This document shows positions 6,448 through 35,228 of a DNA stretch of 64,000 bases, in pieces (position 1 is the stretch's first letter; each line of letters begins with the position of its first letter). The translations under genes and the position numbers were made by a program. This stretch comes from Candidatus Hodarchaeota archaeon (lineage in GTDB: Archaea > Asgardarchaeota > Lokiarchaeia > Sigyniarchaeales > SOKP01), in assembly GCA_048887225.1 (NCBI GenBank), contig JBHLJY010000004.1, positions 32,001 through 96,000 on the forward strand, given 5' to 3'. The notes under the pieces are model-generated. The model was given only the letters and a program-made list of their open reading frames with translations. It was not told the origin of the DNA and did no database searches.

Positions 6448-7863
6448 TTAAATTTTTTTTATACTAAAACTTCTCAATTCTTTTAACAAAACTGGATCCC
6501 CCTTTGATACTTCTATATCTTTACTTTCAATTCCGACAATCACAGCTCCTTTTGTTCCAAATGTTCCAAGAATTTTTGTAAAAGGTGGCTCCAGCTGCCT
6601 TCCTACTATTTTTTTTGCTCCAGCAGCACTTTGTGCTAAACCTGTACTAATTATCCCTTGAGAATGATCTGGATTTTTAATATATCCTTTTTTTACCTTG
6701 TATTTATAGAATTGCGGAGATACTGAATGAATTTTTGTCAATTCTGCGGACCCTAATATTCTAAGTGTGGTTGGCGGTAAGTCTAATCGACTTAGAAGCA
6801 TTATTTTTTTTTTTCTAATTAAAACCTTTTCTTTTAGCCATAAAAAAGCTTTAAATCCCTTATCTTTATTAGTTGCAATTTTTTGAATCTTTTTACCATC
6901 TAATTCATAATAAGGATAAAGATTTCCTATAACTGTATGCATTCCTATAGTAACATGAACTTGCGTTCCAAAATGAGTTTCAGGTTTGAATAAATTATTA
7001 TTATTTACTCTAACTTCGAGAATTTCCCCATAATCAAAAGCTTCGGGATTATTGGTAGCATAACACCCTCTATATATTTTCTTAACATCTAAATTTTTTA
7101 TATTTATTCCTACTCTATCTCCAGCTTTAGCATTTTCTACATTTTCATGAAATATTTGAATTGATTTTACTCTGCCTGAGGTATTTATGGGCAATACAAT
7201 TAAATTATCATTTATTTTCACTTGACCCTTTAATATAGTACCTGTTATAATAGCTCCCATACCCTTAATTGAAAAATGATGGTCTATAGGGATAATAATA
7301 GGCTCATCCAAATCTCTTTTAATTTTTATAGGTTTGATTGTTTCAAGGATACCTTTCTTTAATTCATTAAATCCAGTTTTTTCTTTGGCAGATATAGCAA
7401 ATATAGGTATATTTGAACCGAAAGAAGTTGAATTAAAAAAATTTCTCGTATTTTTAATTTGTTCCTCAATATTTCCTTTAAATAAATCAGTTTTATTTAA
7501 GACAACTAATATTTTTTGGATTCCAAGCGACTCAATCATAATGAGATGTTCGCCAGTTTGAACTTGCGGACCTTTATTTATATCTATTACAACTATCGCA
7601 AGATCTATAATTTCGACAGATGAAGCGCTAATCCTAATCAAATCAGCATGTCCAGGTCCATCAACTAAAGTTATTAGATATTTATCCAAGATAAAGCTTG
7701 TAAACCCCAAATCGATAGTAATACCTCTTTCCTTACTTTGAGGATGAGCATCAATACCGGCGGTAGATATAATTTCACTTAAAACTGCGGCAATTGCAGT
7801 TTTACCAGAATCGATATGACCGAATAATCCAAGATGTACTGGAATTTTTTTTTCAAGATCCAT
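6448..7863 (-). CDS. selB: Selenocysteine-specific translation elongation factor SelB/eEFSec
   Basis: GHIDSGKT, QSKERGITIDLGF, DGPGH, QTGEHL, NKTD, IDHHFSIKGMG; archaeal-type domain IV (GTFGTKG); tRNA-Sec and SepSecS nearby. Confidence 0.93.
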   Translation of the reverse strand: MDLEKKIPVHLGLFGHIDSGKTAIAAVLSEIISTAGIDAHPQSKERGITIDLGFTSFILDKYLITLVDGPGHADLIRISASSVEIIDLAIVVIDINKGPQVQTGEHLIMIESLGIQKILVVLNKTDLFKGNIEEQIKNTRNFFNSTSFGSNIPIFAISAKEKTGFNELKKGILETIKPIKIKRDLDEPIIIPIDHHFSIKGMGAIITGTILKGQVKINDNLIVLPINTSGRVKSIQIFHENVENAKAGDRVGINIKNLDVKKIYRGCYATNNPEAFDYGEILEVRVNNNNLFKPETHFGTQVHVTIGMHTVIGNLYPYYELDGKKIQKIATNKDKGFKAFLWLKEKVLIRKKKIMLLSRLDLPPTTLRILGSAELTKIHSVSPQFYKYKVKKGYIKNPDHSQGIISTGLAQSAAGAKKIVGRQLEPPFTKILGTFGTKGAVIVGIESKDIEVSKGDPVLLKELRSFSIKKI

Positions 7864-11067: not shown

Positions 11068-12447
11068 TTGAAAATGGCTGACGATAAATTTTTAAATAAT
11101 AGACGTGATAAAGCAGGATTTTTTAGATGCCCATCGAGCGACCACATATGTTTAGGGGAAGGAATTCACTTGTATAATGAGAGCGAAAATCGTTATTTAA
11201 TATCTCCTGTAAAGATCCATGTACAGAAAGATTCTCCAAGAGAAAAATTAATAAATAATATAAGAAATGTTTTTGAAAGGGAATTCCCAGATAGTCAACT
11301 TTCTGATTTTGATATATCAAGGATCATTTATAATGACCCTAAATTCATTAAAGATAATTTTCTTCACTCAAGAAAAATAAAGAGAAATTCAAAACCAGAT
11401 TTACTTGTACTTATGAAAATTATTTATTATATTCAAAGTTTAAGTATCAATGACATTGCAAAATTTAAAAAAATGAAAGATAATACCACTAAAATATTAG
11501 ATAACATTAAAATAGATATCAGAAAAATAATTCTTGATTTTATCTTTGATAATCCTTATAGTACGAAGTATATTAAACAAGATAATCGAACTAAACACCA
11601 AAGAGAAAATAATTATTGGAGACCTGAATTTGAACTCTTTTTAGATTTATGGTATGCTGCTTCGTTAAATAACAAAGAACCAATAACGATTAAAATCTTC
11701 CAACAAACGATTGGTAATCCTGCTTTTTCAACACCTACTAAAATTGGGAAATGTAATCCGAAATATTTTTACAATTTGCTTAAAAAAATGCCCTCCTTAT
11801 TTCCTCAAATATCACTAAAGGATTTTAAGCAGGTTCATCGAAGTGTTAAAAATTATATAAGAATTCGAAATTTAAGGGAAACTTATAGAAATTATTCAAT
11901 CTATTGGGAGGATGAACTAACAAAGAAAGGCCAAATTACTATTCTTCTTTTAAGAGATTTAGGTGTGGAAGTATTAACTCTTAAAAAGATTCCATCAATA
12001 AGTTTTAATAAAAATTTAGATTTACATGATCCAATAAAATATCAACGACATCATATATTTCCTAACGATAAAGATTCAATTAATCCGAACAGATTAGTGC
12101 TTGCAGTTTTAACTTCCCACACTAGTTTAGAAGGATTAACAAATTTAATAATTTCTCTTATAAAGGATAGAATAAAATCATGCGATAATATTCCACAATA
12201 TTATAAAAACAATATTAAAAATGCTCAACAATTATGGAATGAATTTCTAAAAAGACGAGATATTATAAAAAATATGGGTATAGAATACTTTTTCAGGACC
12301 TATTATCCTGATGTAGTGAATAGGTTTTATAAAAATGTTCCAAGAGGTCATCTTAAACTAGCAATTAAACAAGTGATTAAAAATTGGCTTAAAGATGGAA
12401 ATCCAGAACCCGTACTTCCAAAATATTTATGGCTTCAACTTATTTGA
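11068..12447 (+). CDS. Hypothetical basic protein with a possible HNH-like motif
   Basis: 459-aa ORF; YQRHHIFPNDKDSINPNRLVLAVLTSH resembles a His-Me nuclease motif. Confidence 0.5.
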   Translation: MKMADDKFLNNRRDKAGFFRCPSSDHICLGEGIHLYNESENRYLISPVKIHVQKDSPREKLINNIRNVFEREFPDSQLSDFDISRIIYNDPKFIKDNFLHSRKIKRNSKPDLLVLMKIIYYIQSLSINDIAKFKKMKDNTTKILDNIKIDIRKIILDFIFDNPYSTKYIKQDNRTKHQRENNYWRPEFELFLDLWYAASLNNKEPITIKIFQQTIGNPAFSTPTKIGKCNPKYFYNLLKKMPSLFPQISLKDFKQVHRSVKNYIRIRNLRETYRNYSIYWEDELTKKGQITILLLRDLGVEVLTLKKIPSISFNKNLDLHDPIKYQRHHIFPNDKDSINPNRLVLAVLTSHTSLEGLTNLIISLIKDRIKSCDNIPQYYKNNIKNAQQLWNEFLKRRDIIKNMGIEYFFRTYYPDVVNRFYKNVPRGHLKLAIKQVIKNWLKDGNPEPVLPKYLWLQLI

Positions 12448-12553
12448 AGAAATATAAAAAATGAGGATAAAAAAGAGAGGATTTCTAAATAGGTTTCAAA
12501 TATTGAAAAAACCAAAAATTTCTTTTAAATTTATTAATTTTATTAATTTAAAT

Positions 12554-12706
12554 GGCCCTCGACGGTCGGATTTTGGAATCGTCTCGTTTTCAAACGATAA
12601 GTGGTCTTCGACGCTGGGCTTCAAACCCAGTTATCCTGCGGAGGGATAGGAGTTCGATAATTGCAAGGATTTTCCTTACTTTTGGAAGTCTCCTCGAGGG
12701 CCGCCA
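12554..12706 (+). tRNA. selC: tRNA-Sec (UCA) with two introns (12571-12600, 12659-12688)
   Basis: 9-bp acceptor GGCCCTCGA/TCGAGGGCC, G73 and encoded CCA; after splicing: 7-bp D stem GTCGGAG/CTTCGAC with TGGT loop, 6-bp anticodon stem GCTGGG/CCCAGT with CT-TCA-AA, long variable arm, 4-bp T stem GGAG/CTCC with TTCGATT (9/4 fold); directly upstream of SepSecS. Confidence 0.95.
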
Positions 12707-12728
12707 TTTTAAGATTTTAATGTGATGT

Positions 12729-14081
12729 ATGTTGGTTGATTTCAACAAAATAAGCGAATTTTTTAAAAACTCACCTATACCTCAAAACATGTTAAATAGA
12801 GGGCAGATAGTCTTAGATAATTTTTTAAAACCCATAAAGATTTTATTTGAACAGAAAAATGTACCCAAAGAACCTTGGAGTGACGAACAAATCGAGGTAT
12901 TACTTCAAGCTCTTTCAAATATGGATACTGACAAGGATACTAATGCCGCTAAAGTAGGCGAAAGGGAGGCAAGAATTGCTTCCAAACTCCATTTAAAAAC
13001 TTCAGCCGGATTCTGTCATGGAGTTGGTAGAAGCGGTTTTTTAACAGCTCCGCAACCAAAGGCTCCAGGTGGATCAATAATGTACGAAATCTCTAATTTT
13101 TTAGCGAGAAATTTTCTTAAAAATTTTGGCCTACCCAATATTAAGGATGCGATTGTTGTTCCTTTAGCAACAGGAATGTCGTTATCTTTATGTTTAGGTG
13201 CTTTAAGACTTGATATAGAGAGTAATAAAAACACAATATTAGTGCCACGAATAGATCACAAATCTATATTAAAAGCATTTGATTTAGGAGGTTTTAAACC
13301 TAAAATTATTAATGGTAAAATATTTGGTGATGCTGTAAGAGTGCCTATTGATGATATTAAAGCAAAATTAGATAATAATTGCTTTGCGATTATATCTTTT
13401 ACGAGTTTTTTTCCACCCAGAGAGTATGATGATATAAAAGAAATTAGTAAATTTGCTCAAGAAAATAACCTTGTTCATCTTGTAGTTAATGCATATGGTG
13501 TTCAAAGTCCCGAATGGATGAAATTAATTAGTTCTGCTATTGATGCAGGAAGAATAGATGTCATTATTCAATCTACAGATAAGAATTTTCTTACACCAGT
13601 AGGCGGAGCTGTAATTGCCTCCCCTCGAAAAGAAATAATATCTACAATCAGTCAAGCGTATGCTGGTCGAGCTTCAGCAACACCAGTTGTAAACTTTCTT
13701 ATTTCTATGCTTTCTTTAGGTATTAGTGGGTATCAGAATCTATTGGAAGAACAAAAAAAAAATCGTGTATTACTTGAAGAAAAGTTAAAAGAAACTGCGG
13801 ATAAAATAAATGAAAGACTTTTAGATATATTTAATCCTGTAGCCGTCGCACTATCTCTTGAAAATTTAAAAAAAGAACAAATAACTGCTTTAGGGGGTGC
13901 TTTATATAATTTAAGAGTCACTGGACCTAGAGTCTATAATCCTAAAGATGATAATTTTGGAACATGTTGTGATAATTATCCTATCCCCTATATTGTAATG
14001 AATGCAGCTATAGGAGCTAAACCTACGGATATTAATTCTGCAATTGAAAGATTTGAAAAAGCTTATGACCAAATTACCTAA
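12729..14081 (+). CDS. spcS: O-phosphoseryl-tRNA(Sec) selenium transferase (SepSecS)
   Basis: VGEREARI, HGVGRSG, QPKAPGGS, VPLATGMS, DHKS, NAYG, QSTDKNF (PLP Lys), YAGRAS. Confidence 0.96.
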   Translation: MLVDFNKISEFFKNSPIPQNMLNRGQIVLDNFLKPIKILFEQKNVPKEPWSDEQIEVLLQALSNMDTDKDTNAAKVGEREARIASKLHLKTSAGFCHGVGRSGFLTAPQPKAPGGSIMYEISNFLARNFLKNFGLPNIKDAIVVPLATGMSLSLCLGALRLDIESNKNTILVPRIDHKSILKAFDLGGFKPKIINGKIFGDAVRVPIDDIKAKLDNNCFAIISFTSFFPPREYDDIKEISKFAQENNLVHLVVNAYGVQSPEWMKLISSAIDAGRIDVIIQSTDKNFLTPVGGAVIASPRKEIISTISQAYAGRASATPVVNFLISMLSLGISGYQNLLEEQKKNRVLLEEKLKETADKINERLLDIFNPVAVALSLENLKKEQITALGGALYNLRVTGPRVYNPKDDNFGTCCDNYPIPYIVMNAAIGAKPTDINSAIERFEKAYDQIT

Positions 14082-14935: not shown

Positions 14936-15119
14936 TGCTCCCGGGGGGATTTGAACCCCCGATTTCTTGGTTTTTTACAAATCGTAAAAATCTCTCAGGT
15001 TTTTACTAAACACAGACAGAAATTTTAAAATTGTATGTCTATGTGTCAATTATAAGACCTGCGCTTGTTGATCAAGCTCATAAAACCTGTGCTTGTTAAC
15101 CAGGCTAAGCAACGGGAGC
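14936..15119 (-). tRNA. tRNA-Ile (UAU) with three introns (15067-15096, 15001-15049, 14964-14993)
   Basis: Spliced product GCTCCCG TT GCTT AGCCTGGTTA AAGC G CAGGT CTTATAA ACCTG AGATC GGGGG TTCAAAT CCCCC CGGGAGC A is a complete cloverleaf; each intron has BHB-like junctions; CCA not encoded. Confidence 0.88.
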
Positions 15120-33151: not shown

Positions 33152-33713
33152 TTACAAATCCTCCTTTATTTTATCATCGTATTCTCCATTATTAATTCTC
33201 TCTTGAATGATCCTAGGGTCCTCTCCTTCAACAGTTAGGCCTACAGATAAGGCGGTTCCTAATACTGTTTTAACACCAGTTTTAAATGTTTTATCTAAAA
33301 AGATGTCTTTTTTAGCATTTGCGACCGAAATTATTTGGTCAAGAGTTAAATTACCAATTTTATCCTCTCCTGGATTTGAAGAACCCTTCTCAACTCCAAC
33401 TTCTTTCAATAATAATGAAGCTGTAGAAGGAGTTTCTACAAAAATTTCAAATTGTTTTGTCTCAGGATCACACTCAATTCTCACTGGAACAGTTAATCCT
33501 TTAAACACCATTGTTTTTTCGTTTACAGCATCAATGACATCCTTAATATTGATACCCGTTGGACCTTAAGCCAATAATTCGAAATGAATTATTTACAGCC
33601 GGTCCAATTGGAGGTCCTCCTGAAGCATTAGGGGTAATTTTCGAAGTGAAAGTTTATTATACACTCCCTCCAGTCACAAGGGCCTTTACTACAACCTTTC
33701 CTTTTTTACTCAT
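33152..33713 (-). CDS. rpl11: 50S ribosomal protein uL11, split into exons 33713-33664, 33627-33595 and 33566-33152
   Basis: Joined exons = 498 nt, 165 aa: MSKKGKVVVKALVTGGSASGGPPIGPAVGPTGINIKDVIDAVNEKTMVFKGLTVPV...; the ORF track shows only the last 119 aa. Confidence 0.9.
33567..33594 (-). other. uL11 intron 2 (28 nt, strict BHB, frameshifting)
   Basis: Outer helix TTGGACC/GGTCCAA, central helix GGCT/GGCT (two G-U pairs), bulges GT^A and TA^A, inner helix AATAATTC/GAATTATT; splicing gives GCT GTA GGT (A-V-G). Confidence 0.9.
33628..33663 (-). other. uL11 intron 1 (36 nt, relaxed BHB, contains in-frame stops)
   Basis: Central helix AGGG/CCCT, bulges AG^T and AA^T, inner helix GTA/TAC; splicing gives GGG AGT GCT (G-S-A). 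Confidence 0.82.
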
Positions 33714-33917
33714 CGCTATCAAATTATTATCTTAAATTTGTTTCAAAATATATCATTAAAGGTTTAGGAACGCATCGTTTTTTCAATAGAATTTATTTCA
33801 ATATCTCAATTATATTGAAACCGCTATAATTTGCGTCCTAAGTCTATAAGAAAATATTTTGAACTTAGTGTGTTGGAAAGTGAATTAGAATTAAAAAAGT
33901 TTATTAAAAGATATCGT

Positions 33918-34103
33918 TTAAAATCTGCAACATAATCTTCGACCATAGTCGAGATTGCTCTTCAAATATTCATTCTCCAGTATTTTCATAACTTTATCAT
34001 ACTCGAGATTTAACTTTTTTACAATATCTTCTATCTCAATACCAGGTGTAGATATCAATCTAAAAATCTCTTTTTTTACATCTTCATTAACTTCTTCAGT
34101 CAT
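33918..34103 (-). CDS. Small HTH-like protein ending in LCCRF
   Basis: IEDIVKKLNLEYDKVMKIL resembles a helix-turn-helix; 61 aa. Confidence 0.5.
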   Translation of the reverse strand: MTEEVNEDVKKEIFRLISTPGIEIEDIVKKLNLEYDKVMKILENEYLKSNLDYGRRLCCRF

Positions 34104-34163
34104 TGTTTTTTAGATAATAATTTCTATATTTTAATATTTAGCTTAATTTTTAAAAATAAAATT

Positions 34164-35228
34164 TTATTTCGAACTTTTTCTTTTACCTTCAATTATAGCC
34201 TTCCCTAATTCTAGTACTCTGTCGAAGGGTTCCTCACCATCTTTCCTTAGTTGTAGAATTATTGCTTCTTCTGGACAAACGTTAGCACATAATCCACACC
34301 CGAGGCATAGATCTGTATTAACTATTGCGAAATCTTCCAATTGTATTGCTTCAACTGGGCATCGTTCTACGCAATTACCACATCCAACACATGTTTCTCG
34401 ATCTATTATGGATTCGAACATTGCGTTTAGAAATCTATGTTTATCTAGTCCTTTTTGCGTTATTCCTTTCATAGATGCACAACAACAAGGACAGCAATTA
34501 CATATATTTGACAAGTGTTTGGAATTAACTCCTGCATGAATCAGGCCTGCATTGTCTGCTTCTTCAATAATATTTATAGCCTCCTCAGCAGAAATTTCCC
34601 TACCGACCCCATTTTCAATGTAATATTCAGCTGCAACCCCGAAGGATAAACAGTTTTCTATTGGACCATCGCAACCTTCACCGTTTAATTTTGCTTCTTT
34701 ACGGCAAATACATTCGTATACTGCTATTTTTCTGGCATTTTTAATACTCTCTTTGAGTTTATGGTAAGGGTACAGAACAGTATGAGCTTCTATTGTTTCT
34801 TCAACAGGAAGCACCTTGAATCCCGGTACATTACTTGCCCCCATTTCATTCATATATGCTAAATCATAATATTTTTTAAACATTTTTGCGAGCTCTTCAT
34901 CTAGTTTTCCAACGGAGTACTCATATAATCCAACCATAAACGGTGCTGAATTGTAAAGTGTCTTCCCATCTCGTCTAACACGGAAAATGAGTCCCTTTCT
35001 TGACATTGAATCTAATTTTTCTTCTACTTCTTTTATTTCCGATCCTACTCGTCTAGCAATTCGAGATGCTTTTTCGGGAATAGGAGTTAGGAATATTGCT
35101 ATTTTTGCTTCTTCTTCCGTAAAAAGTCTTTTCAAGATCTTGATTTCAATCCCGTTTGATGTTTTAGGATAGCCTAATGGGAACCGATCTAAAAATTCTC
35201 TTAACTTTAAGTAAGCCTTTTCAGACAT
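34164..35228 (-). CDS. 4Fe-4S cluster-binding protein (N-terminal wHTH-like region, C-terminal 2x[4Fe-4S] ferredoxin)
   Basis: CICR, ICNCCPCCC, CVGCGNCVERCP, CLGCGLCANVCP. Confidence 0.88.
   Translation of the reverse strand: MSEKAYLKLREFLDRFPLGYPKTSNGIEIKILKRLFTEEEAKIAIFLTPIPEKASRIARRVGSEIKEVEEKLDSMSRKGLIFRVRRDGKTLYNSAPFMVGLYEYSVGKLDEELAKMFKKYYDLAYMNEMGASNVPGFKVLPVEETIEAHTVLYPYHKLKESIKNARKIAVYECICRKEAKLNGEGCDGPIENCLSFGVAAEYYIENGVGREISAEEAINIIEEADNAGLIHAGVNSKHLSNICNCCPCCCASMKGITQKGLDKHRFLNAMFESIIDRETCVGCGNCVERCPVEAIQLEDFAIVNTDLCLGCGLCANVCPEEAIILQLRKDGEEPFDRVLELGKAIIEGKRKSSK

Follow-up and report, generated by a model that had tools for sequence, protein, structure and literature searches.

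Among the selenocysteine tRNA genes described so far, that of Lokiarchaeota carries a 31-nt intron in the T loop (Mariotti et al. 2016, PMC4989117; Santesmasses et al. 2017, PMC5330540), and the tRNA-Sec genes of Daphnia pulex carry a canonical anticodon-loop intron (PMC5330540). Introns in tRNA-Sec go unmentioned in a 2024 survey covering more than 400 Asgard genomes (PMC11227280). From Atabeyarchaeia and Freyarchaeia, tRNAs with several introns have been described (Valentin-Alvarado et al. 2024, PMC11291895), and in a preprint of October 2026 it is reported that Asgard tRNAs commonly have D-arm introns, which tRNAscan-SE often misses, that splicing has so far been demonstrated for none of them and that some of these inserts may not be introns; selenocysteine tRNAs are named only in its methods (10.64898/2026.10.13.758758). 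For tRNAs of Thermoproteales and Crenarchaeota, non-canonical BHB introns cut by EndA of the (alpha-beta)2 or epsilon2 type are described (PMC5829648; Marck and Grosjean 2003, as cited in PMC11291895).

The tRNA-Sec(UCA) gene studied here, found in a 64-kb stretch of DNA that we call the window, shares with its Lokiarchaeota counterpart the UCA anticodon, G73, the 9/4 fold, a 7-bp D stem with a 4-nt D loop, a long variable arm and a T-loop intron of about 30 nt; the initial annotation had mentioned an intron-bearing tRNA-Sec in Lokiarchaeota, and the published T-loop intron (PMC4989117) bears this out. As in Lokiarchaeum, where the distance is about 6 kb, EFsec lies upstream on the opposite strand (PMC4989117). 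Unlike the Lokiarchaeota gene, for which only the T-loop intron is reported, the window gene has a second 30-nt intron in the 5' strand of the D stem, and it is adjoined by SepSecS, which was on a separate contig in the Lokiarchaeota study (PMC4989117). The tRNA-Sec papers searched (PMC4989117, PMC5330540, PMC9499178, PMC11227280) make no mention of a D-arm intron in tRNA-Sec. In contrast to the single canonical intron of the eukaryote D. pulex, the window gene has none at position 37/38, but 13 of its relatives do.

The likeness to the Asgard multi-intron tRNAs lies in inserts of about 20-35 nt at BHB-compatible sites, several per gene and commonly in the D arm, and their hosts also have two EndA paralogues and a patchy presence of introns among relatives (PMC11291895, 10.64898/2026.10.13.758758). 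Those studies focus on ordinary tRNAs of Atabeyarchaeia, Freyarchaeia and Jordiarchaeia, whereas the window lineage is Loki-type and the gene encodes tRNA-Sec. With the introns of Thermoproteales and Crenarchaeota (PMC5829648), the window gene shares the occurrence of a relaxed HBh' motif away from the anticodon loop, the presence of more than one intron in a gene, and a heteromeric, broad-specificity EndA, which is putative here. The D-arm intron, the two-intron gene and the three-site polymorphism described below are thus new for tRNA-Sec in the literature searched, within a known phenomenon.

The gene and its predicted spliced product

The gene was found on the forward strand at the coordinates given in the initial annotation, in three exons separated by two introns of equal length and with two A/T-rich signals in its flanks:

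12554-12706, + strand: tRNA-Sec(UCA) gene, three exons and two 30-nt introns
12554..12570, + strand: exon 1, with the acceptor 5' strand (9 nt), 2 linker nt and the first 6 nt of the D-stem 5' strand
12571..12600, + strand: intron 1, 30 nt, interrupting the D-stem 5' strand behind mature nucleotide 17, standard position 15/16
12601..12658, + strand: exon 2, from the last nucleotide of the D-stem 5' strand through the T loop up to position 59
12659..12688, + strand: intron 2, 30 nt, interrupting the T loop at standard position 59/60
12689..12706, + strand: exon 3, with T60, the T-stem 3' strand, the acceptor 3' strand, G73 and CCA
12520..12528, + strand: promoter-like A/T box TTCTTTTAA, 34 nt upstream of the tRNA 5' end
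12707..12710, + strand: TTTT run directly 3' of CCA

Exon 2, which is 90-98% identical across the family, comprises the D loop, the D-stem 3' strand, the anticodon arm (UCA at 12621-12623), the variable arm and the T-stem 5' strand. When the three exons (12554-12570, 12601-12658 and 12689-12706) are joined, an RNA of 93 nt is obtained that ARAGORN calls as tRNA-SeC(tca); at default settings, no call was returned for the unspliced sequence or for either singly spliced form. The spliced RNA has a 9-bp acceptor stem, Watson-Crick at 9/9 pairs, and a 4-bp T stem, giving the 9/4 fold, together with a 7-bp D stem (GUCGGAG/CUUCGAC) closed by the 4-nt loop UGGU, a 7-nt anticodon loop with UCA on a 6-bp stem, a long variable arm (6-bp stem, 5-nt loop) and G73 before CCA. 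Its RNAfold minimum-free-energy structure, at -48.0 kcal/mol, is identical to the cloverleaf of ARAGORN, so that both programs agree with the 93-nt product of 9/4 fold proposed initially. In anticodon, 9/4 fold, D arm, variable arm and G73, the product has the structure of an archaeal-type tRNA-Sec. The D loop had been described at first as eukaryote-like; this has to be corrected, since 7 bp in the stem and 4 nt in the loop are what characterizes the D arm of archaeal tRNA-Sec (PMC4989117, PMC5330540).

The gene stands out as a G+C-rich island inside an A/T-rich spacer, the exons having 62% GC, the introns 33% and the genome 30.5%. A match to CRISPR-DR47 of Rfam at 12467-12509 (E 0.11), in the same spacer, was judged to be due to chance. 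Over the whole window, neither ARAGORN nor Rfam at gathering thresholds called any tRNA, because the introns interrupt tRNA-Sec. On the Rfam model RF01852 (tRNA-Sec), the unspliced gene reaches 20 bits by a partial match over its central part, the gathering score being 47.

The CCA is encoded in the gene (12704-12706), and GCCA is encoded in 82 of the 84 parsed orthologues; the window gene and its family are in this respect opposite to the statement of a 2022 review according to which CCA is not encoded in tRNA-Sec genes of archaea (PMC9499178). A T run occurs within 6 nt of CCA in 44 of 85 orthologous loci, and the one at 12707..12710 is likely a transcription stop. Upstream, the motif TT[TC]TTTTA starts at -34 in 11/77 distinct orthologue flanks, including that of the window gene, and we infer that the A/T box at 12520..12528 is a putative promoter element. 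Directly upstream of tRNA-Sec lies a 459-aa ORF (11068-12447, + strand), which has no Pfam match and is absent beside tRNA-Sec in the loci of 22 relatives that were searched; it was considered as a Sec-linked factor and dropped on both grounds, and is possibly an inserted gene.

Structure of the two introns

Both inserts fit the archaeal BHB rule, with two 3-nt bulges flanking a 4-bp helix and the cut after the second bulge nucleotide, and the helices and bulges proposed initially for both introns were recovered in the motif analysis, with covariation in relatives. Folded globally, the 153-nt precursor has a minimum-free-energy structure that lacks both BHBs, which speaks against them, and local and constrained folds were used for this reason; a conformer that has both BHBs together with the stems of the acceptor, anticodon, variable and T arms is 5 kcal/mol higher in energy than the global minimum.

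In intron 1 the central helix is GUCG/CGAU, with one G.U pair, and the bulges are GA|U and AA|G. The inner helix h' (UUUGGAA/UUUCAAA) has 7 bp, and the outer helix h has only 2 bp, which are invariant, so that the motif is of the relaxed HBh' type and not a strict hBHBh'. This HBh' is the local minimum-free-energy structure of the intron and accounts for 47% of the ensemble. Under the strict definition derived from intron 1, the + strand of the 64-kb window has 41 occurrences of the motif, so that about 0.1 would be expected in 153 nt. Of the distinct real D-arm introns, 41 in number, 38 keep the central helix at 4/4 pairs; three D-arm introns show the compensatory change from GUCG/CGAU to GUUG/CAAU, for which GUUG/CGAU represents the G.U intermediate, and the pairs of the inner helix alternate among A-U, U-A, G-C and C-G. 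As noted initially, intron 1 pairs with D-stem nucleotides before splicing, the GUCG of the central helix belonging to the D stem and the CGAU to the 3' end of the intron, and the D stem should therefore form only after excision.

These data bear on the possibility that one or both inserts are retained in the mature RNA as expansion segments, giving a larger D arm or T loop. When Asgard tRNAs are annotated, insertions in the D arm often stay in the 'mature' sequence, and some of these insertions may indeed not be introns (10.64898/2026.10.13.758758). The insert of the window gene, however, splits the D stem, which is required for the tRNA-Sec fold; its 3' end covaries with D-stem nucleotides in such a way that the 4-bp helix and the two 3-nt bulges are kept, and close relatives function without the inserts. 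Since a covarying 4-bp helix with its bulges would otherwise be without purpose, it points to an EndA site, and we regard retention as very unlikely.

The exact cut was considered separately. The 5' junction of intron 1 can be shifted by one base, as A12570 is identical to A12600, and in one genus the relatives have a second class of D-arm introns with a register one base upstream (GGUU/AACC). Together with the near absence of the outer helix in intron 1, this could indicate that the junctions, the enzyme or the pathway of removal depart from the canonical EndA cut after the second bulge nucleotide, for instance through a register shifted by one base or a separate endonuclease for the relaxed D-arm motif. 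Against this, either register of intron 1 yields an identical product, and both D-arm registers obey the 3-4-3 BHB rule, which makes such a departure highly improbable, and removal of the inserts by EndA at the junctions listed above is the reading that we follow. One relative assembled as a single contig (G067) has two tRNA-Sec genes, at C1:777919-777995 (L081) and 1145207-1145283 (L084), each with a D-arm intron in the shifted register; the two intron sequences differ and their hairpins are kept.

In intron 2, the central helix pairs UUCG, at T-loop positions 54-57, with UGGA at the 3' end of the intron, two of the pairs being G.U, and the bulges are AU|A and AG|U. The outer helix is the T stem, with 5 bp, and the inner helix is interrupted, consisting of 1 bp and two mismatches before a hairpin, which falls short of a strict hBHBh'. 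Across relatives, the inner helix of the T-loop intron covaries, with pairs switching as in the D-arm intron. By a loose rule, the motif of intron 2 is matched 858 times in the 64-kb window; because the motif is not rare on its own, the support for this intron is comparative and lies in the intron-less orthologues, which are continuous across the junction. It is precisely missing in several of them (e.g., L022, L020, L023), and the loci L018 and L022, from two species and with flanks 96-97% identical, differ by exactly a 31-nt T-loop insert.

The weak outer helix of intron 1, and the two G.U pairs and interrupted h' of intron 2, mean that an endonuclease of relaxed specificity would be needed, a property that we infer from the pattern of EndA paralogues only. 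Two ORFs of the EndA family, each of 201 aa, are present in the genome; in one of them the catalytic Tyr, His and Lys are all found, and the other has lost the His, a pair that would fit a broad-specificity (alpha-beta)2 enzyme. As summarised in the preprint, Thermoproteales, which belong to a different phylum, have intron families shared among tRNAs (10.64898/2026.10.13.758758), whereas no repeated family was found here: a blastn-short search of the introns with their flanks against their own genome gave only chance matches of 11-14 nt. Two other hits in the genome, at C21:30004 and C1:372272, proved on inspection to be unrelated.

Occurrence of the introns among relatives

To test the junctions by comparison, an intron-less orthologue was used as a query against 154 species-genomes of the same order. 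The gene was found in 132; 85 loci were fetched and parsed with a structure-anchored parser, and a few further cases were assigned from the BLAST pattern. The following states were obtained:

No intron: about 64 species
D-arm intron only: 15 species
D-arm and T-loop introns: about 36 species (31 verified, 4 by BLAST pattern)
T-loop intron only: 3 species
Canonical 37/38 and T-loop introns: 11 species
37/38 intron only: 2 species
Cut by contig ends, ambiguous: 3 genomes

The tRNA-Sec of this order has therefore three intron sites in six occupancy states. The D-arm intron is present in about 52 of the 132 species (about 39%), is spread over 10 of the 13 genera of the family and is missing in about 83 orthologues; as related genomes are not independent, these species counts describe a distribution and not a number of events. 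The D-arm intron had been called 'less usual' in the initial annotation, which holds for the tRNA-Sec papers searched, where it is unmentioned, but not for the order itself, given this frequency. The 37/38 intron was found in 13 species (L057-L069, e.g., L057:184-334), with a length of 22-28 nt, a central helix CUUC/GAAG and A-rich bulges; we found no report of an archaeal tRNA-Sec with an intron at this position in the literature searched.

The intron-less orthologues also define the junctions. In these genes the 17 nt of exon 1 run directly into GTGGTC, and the sequences GGT(C/T)(G/A)GA followed by GTGGTC, and TTCGAT followed by TC(C/T)CC, are those expected from the junctions proposed for the window gene, so that both introns, 12571-12600 and 12659-12688, stand as first delimited. 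On average, pairwise identity is 94% for the exons, and 73% and 67% for the two introns. The intron-less orthologues, with exons 90-97% identical, score 51-63 bits on RF01852, above the gathering score of 47; one T-only gene scores 49 bits, and two D-only genes both fall under the gathering threshold.

SepSecS adjoins tRNA-Sec in 16 of 23 orthologous loci, and three intron states (none, D only, D+T) are represented among them, all with this adjacency, which indicates that one orthologous locus is concerned. The SepSecS relatives are on MAG contigs mostly labelled Promethearchaeota or Promethearchaeia, which places the window organism among the Loki-type Asgard archaea; other close relatives carry the labels Thorarchaeota or Hermodarchaeota. 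An Asgard-type SepSecS (75% identity) and a two-intron tRNA-Sec are also found on LJUH01000039.1 (L042), assigned to 'Chlamydiae bacterium SM23_39', which is probably a mis-binned Asgard contig.

Selenocysteine machinery, proposed processing and possible intron turnover

Four genes of the Sec pathway, PSTK, SepSecS, EFsec and SelD, co-occur with tRNA-Sec in the genome and make its Sec machinery complete, and two of them lie in the window:

12729..14081, + strand: SepSecS (O-phosphoseryl-tRNA(Sec) selenium transferase), 450 aa, Pfam PF05889, E 1.3e-118
6448..7863, - strand: EFsec/SelB, Sec-specific elongation factor, 471 aa, TIGR00475, 248.6 bits, above the cut-off

Only 22 nt separate tRNA-Sec from the start of SepSecS downstream, and EFsec lies about 5 kb upstream of it on the opposite strand. 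Elsewhere in the genome are SelD, which has one in-frame TGA, and PSTK, which matches the full length of TIGR03574 with 155.7 bits, under the equivalog cut-off. A gene for the ligase RtcB is present as well. Its Pfam match is in two pieces (G000:C13:33313-33459 and 33486-34649, L117), split at profile position 47 with about 26 nt between them.

This context weighs on the question of whether the region could be a decaying tRNA-Sec pseudogene whose inserts are unremoved junk, Sec decoding having been lost or depending on an unassembled gene. The silence of ARAGORN on the unspliced sequence and its 20 bits on Rfam would fit with decay, and an assembly in 49 contigs could miss a second copy. The exons are, however, strongly constrained, the stems show compensatory changes, about 50 species have the same inserts, SelD has kept its in-frame TGA, and the genes for EFsec, PSTK and SepSecS show no damage; moreover, no second tRNA-Sec candidate was found in this 49-contig assembly, which is 98% complete. 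A pseudogene is therefore extremely improbable. Taken together, the comparative and structural data indicate that the region is very probably the genome's single tRNA-Sec(UCA) gene, functional and interrupted by two BHB introns, whose removal would give a tRNA of 93 nt.

On this basis, the gene would be transcribed as a precursor of about 153 nt, from which EndA would cut each of the 30-nt introns, and RtcB would join the three exons. The D stem would form once intron 1 has left. The 93-nt tRNA-Sec would then be serylated and phosphorylated by PSTK, SepSecS would convert the phosphorylated tRNA, and EFsec would deliver the product.

Other tRNA genes of this genome also appear interrupted. ARAGORN finds only 32 tRNA genes in the 98%-complete genome, 16 of them with introns, and several isoacceptors are missing from its list, which suggests that more tRNA genes are hidden by non-canonical introns. 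A second interrupted tRNA gene is located in the window at 14936-15119 (- strand), with 35.9 bits on the Rfam tRNA model over 184 nt and no ARAGORN call; its anticodon region is enlarged by an insertion of about 81 nt, and its variable region by one of about 31 nt.

The intron sites in the tRNA-Sec locus are the D stem at 15/16 (14/15 for the second register), the anticodon loop at 37/38 and the T loop at 59/60, and their occupancy is patchy within single genera. A tentative reading, which we hold to be possible but rather doubtful, is that the locus is a live record of ongoing BHB-intron turnover and that the D-arm intron is also a maturation checkpoint, which may bar the precursor from the Sec pathway before splicing. 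If the pattern were due to repeated recent gains, and not to losses or allele exchange, the locus would offer a tractable case for the arrival of archaeal tRNA introns.

The D-arm intron drops the gene under the Rfam threshold and ARAGORN finds nothing; for this reason, surveys of the Sec trait in Asgard genomes that are based on tRNA-Sec could undercount it. For a survey such as that of more than 400 genomes with Secmarker and tRNAscan-SE at default settings (PMC11227280), such an undercount is a risk and not a demonstrated error. The very recent differences in presence and absence at this locus could serve for testing models of intron gain and loss, and its main values are thus the warning that it gives for annotation and the study of intron turnover.
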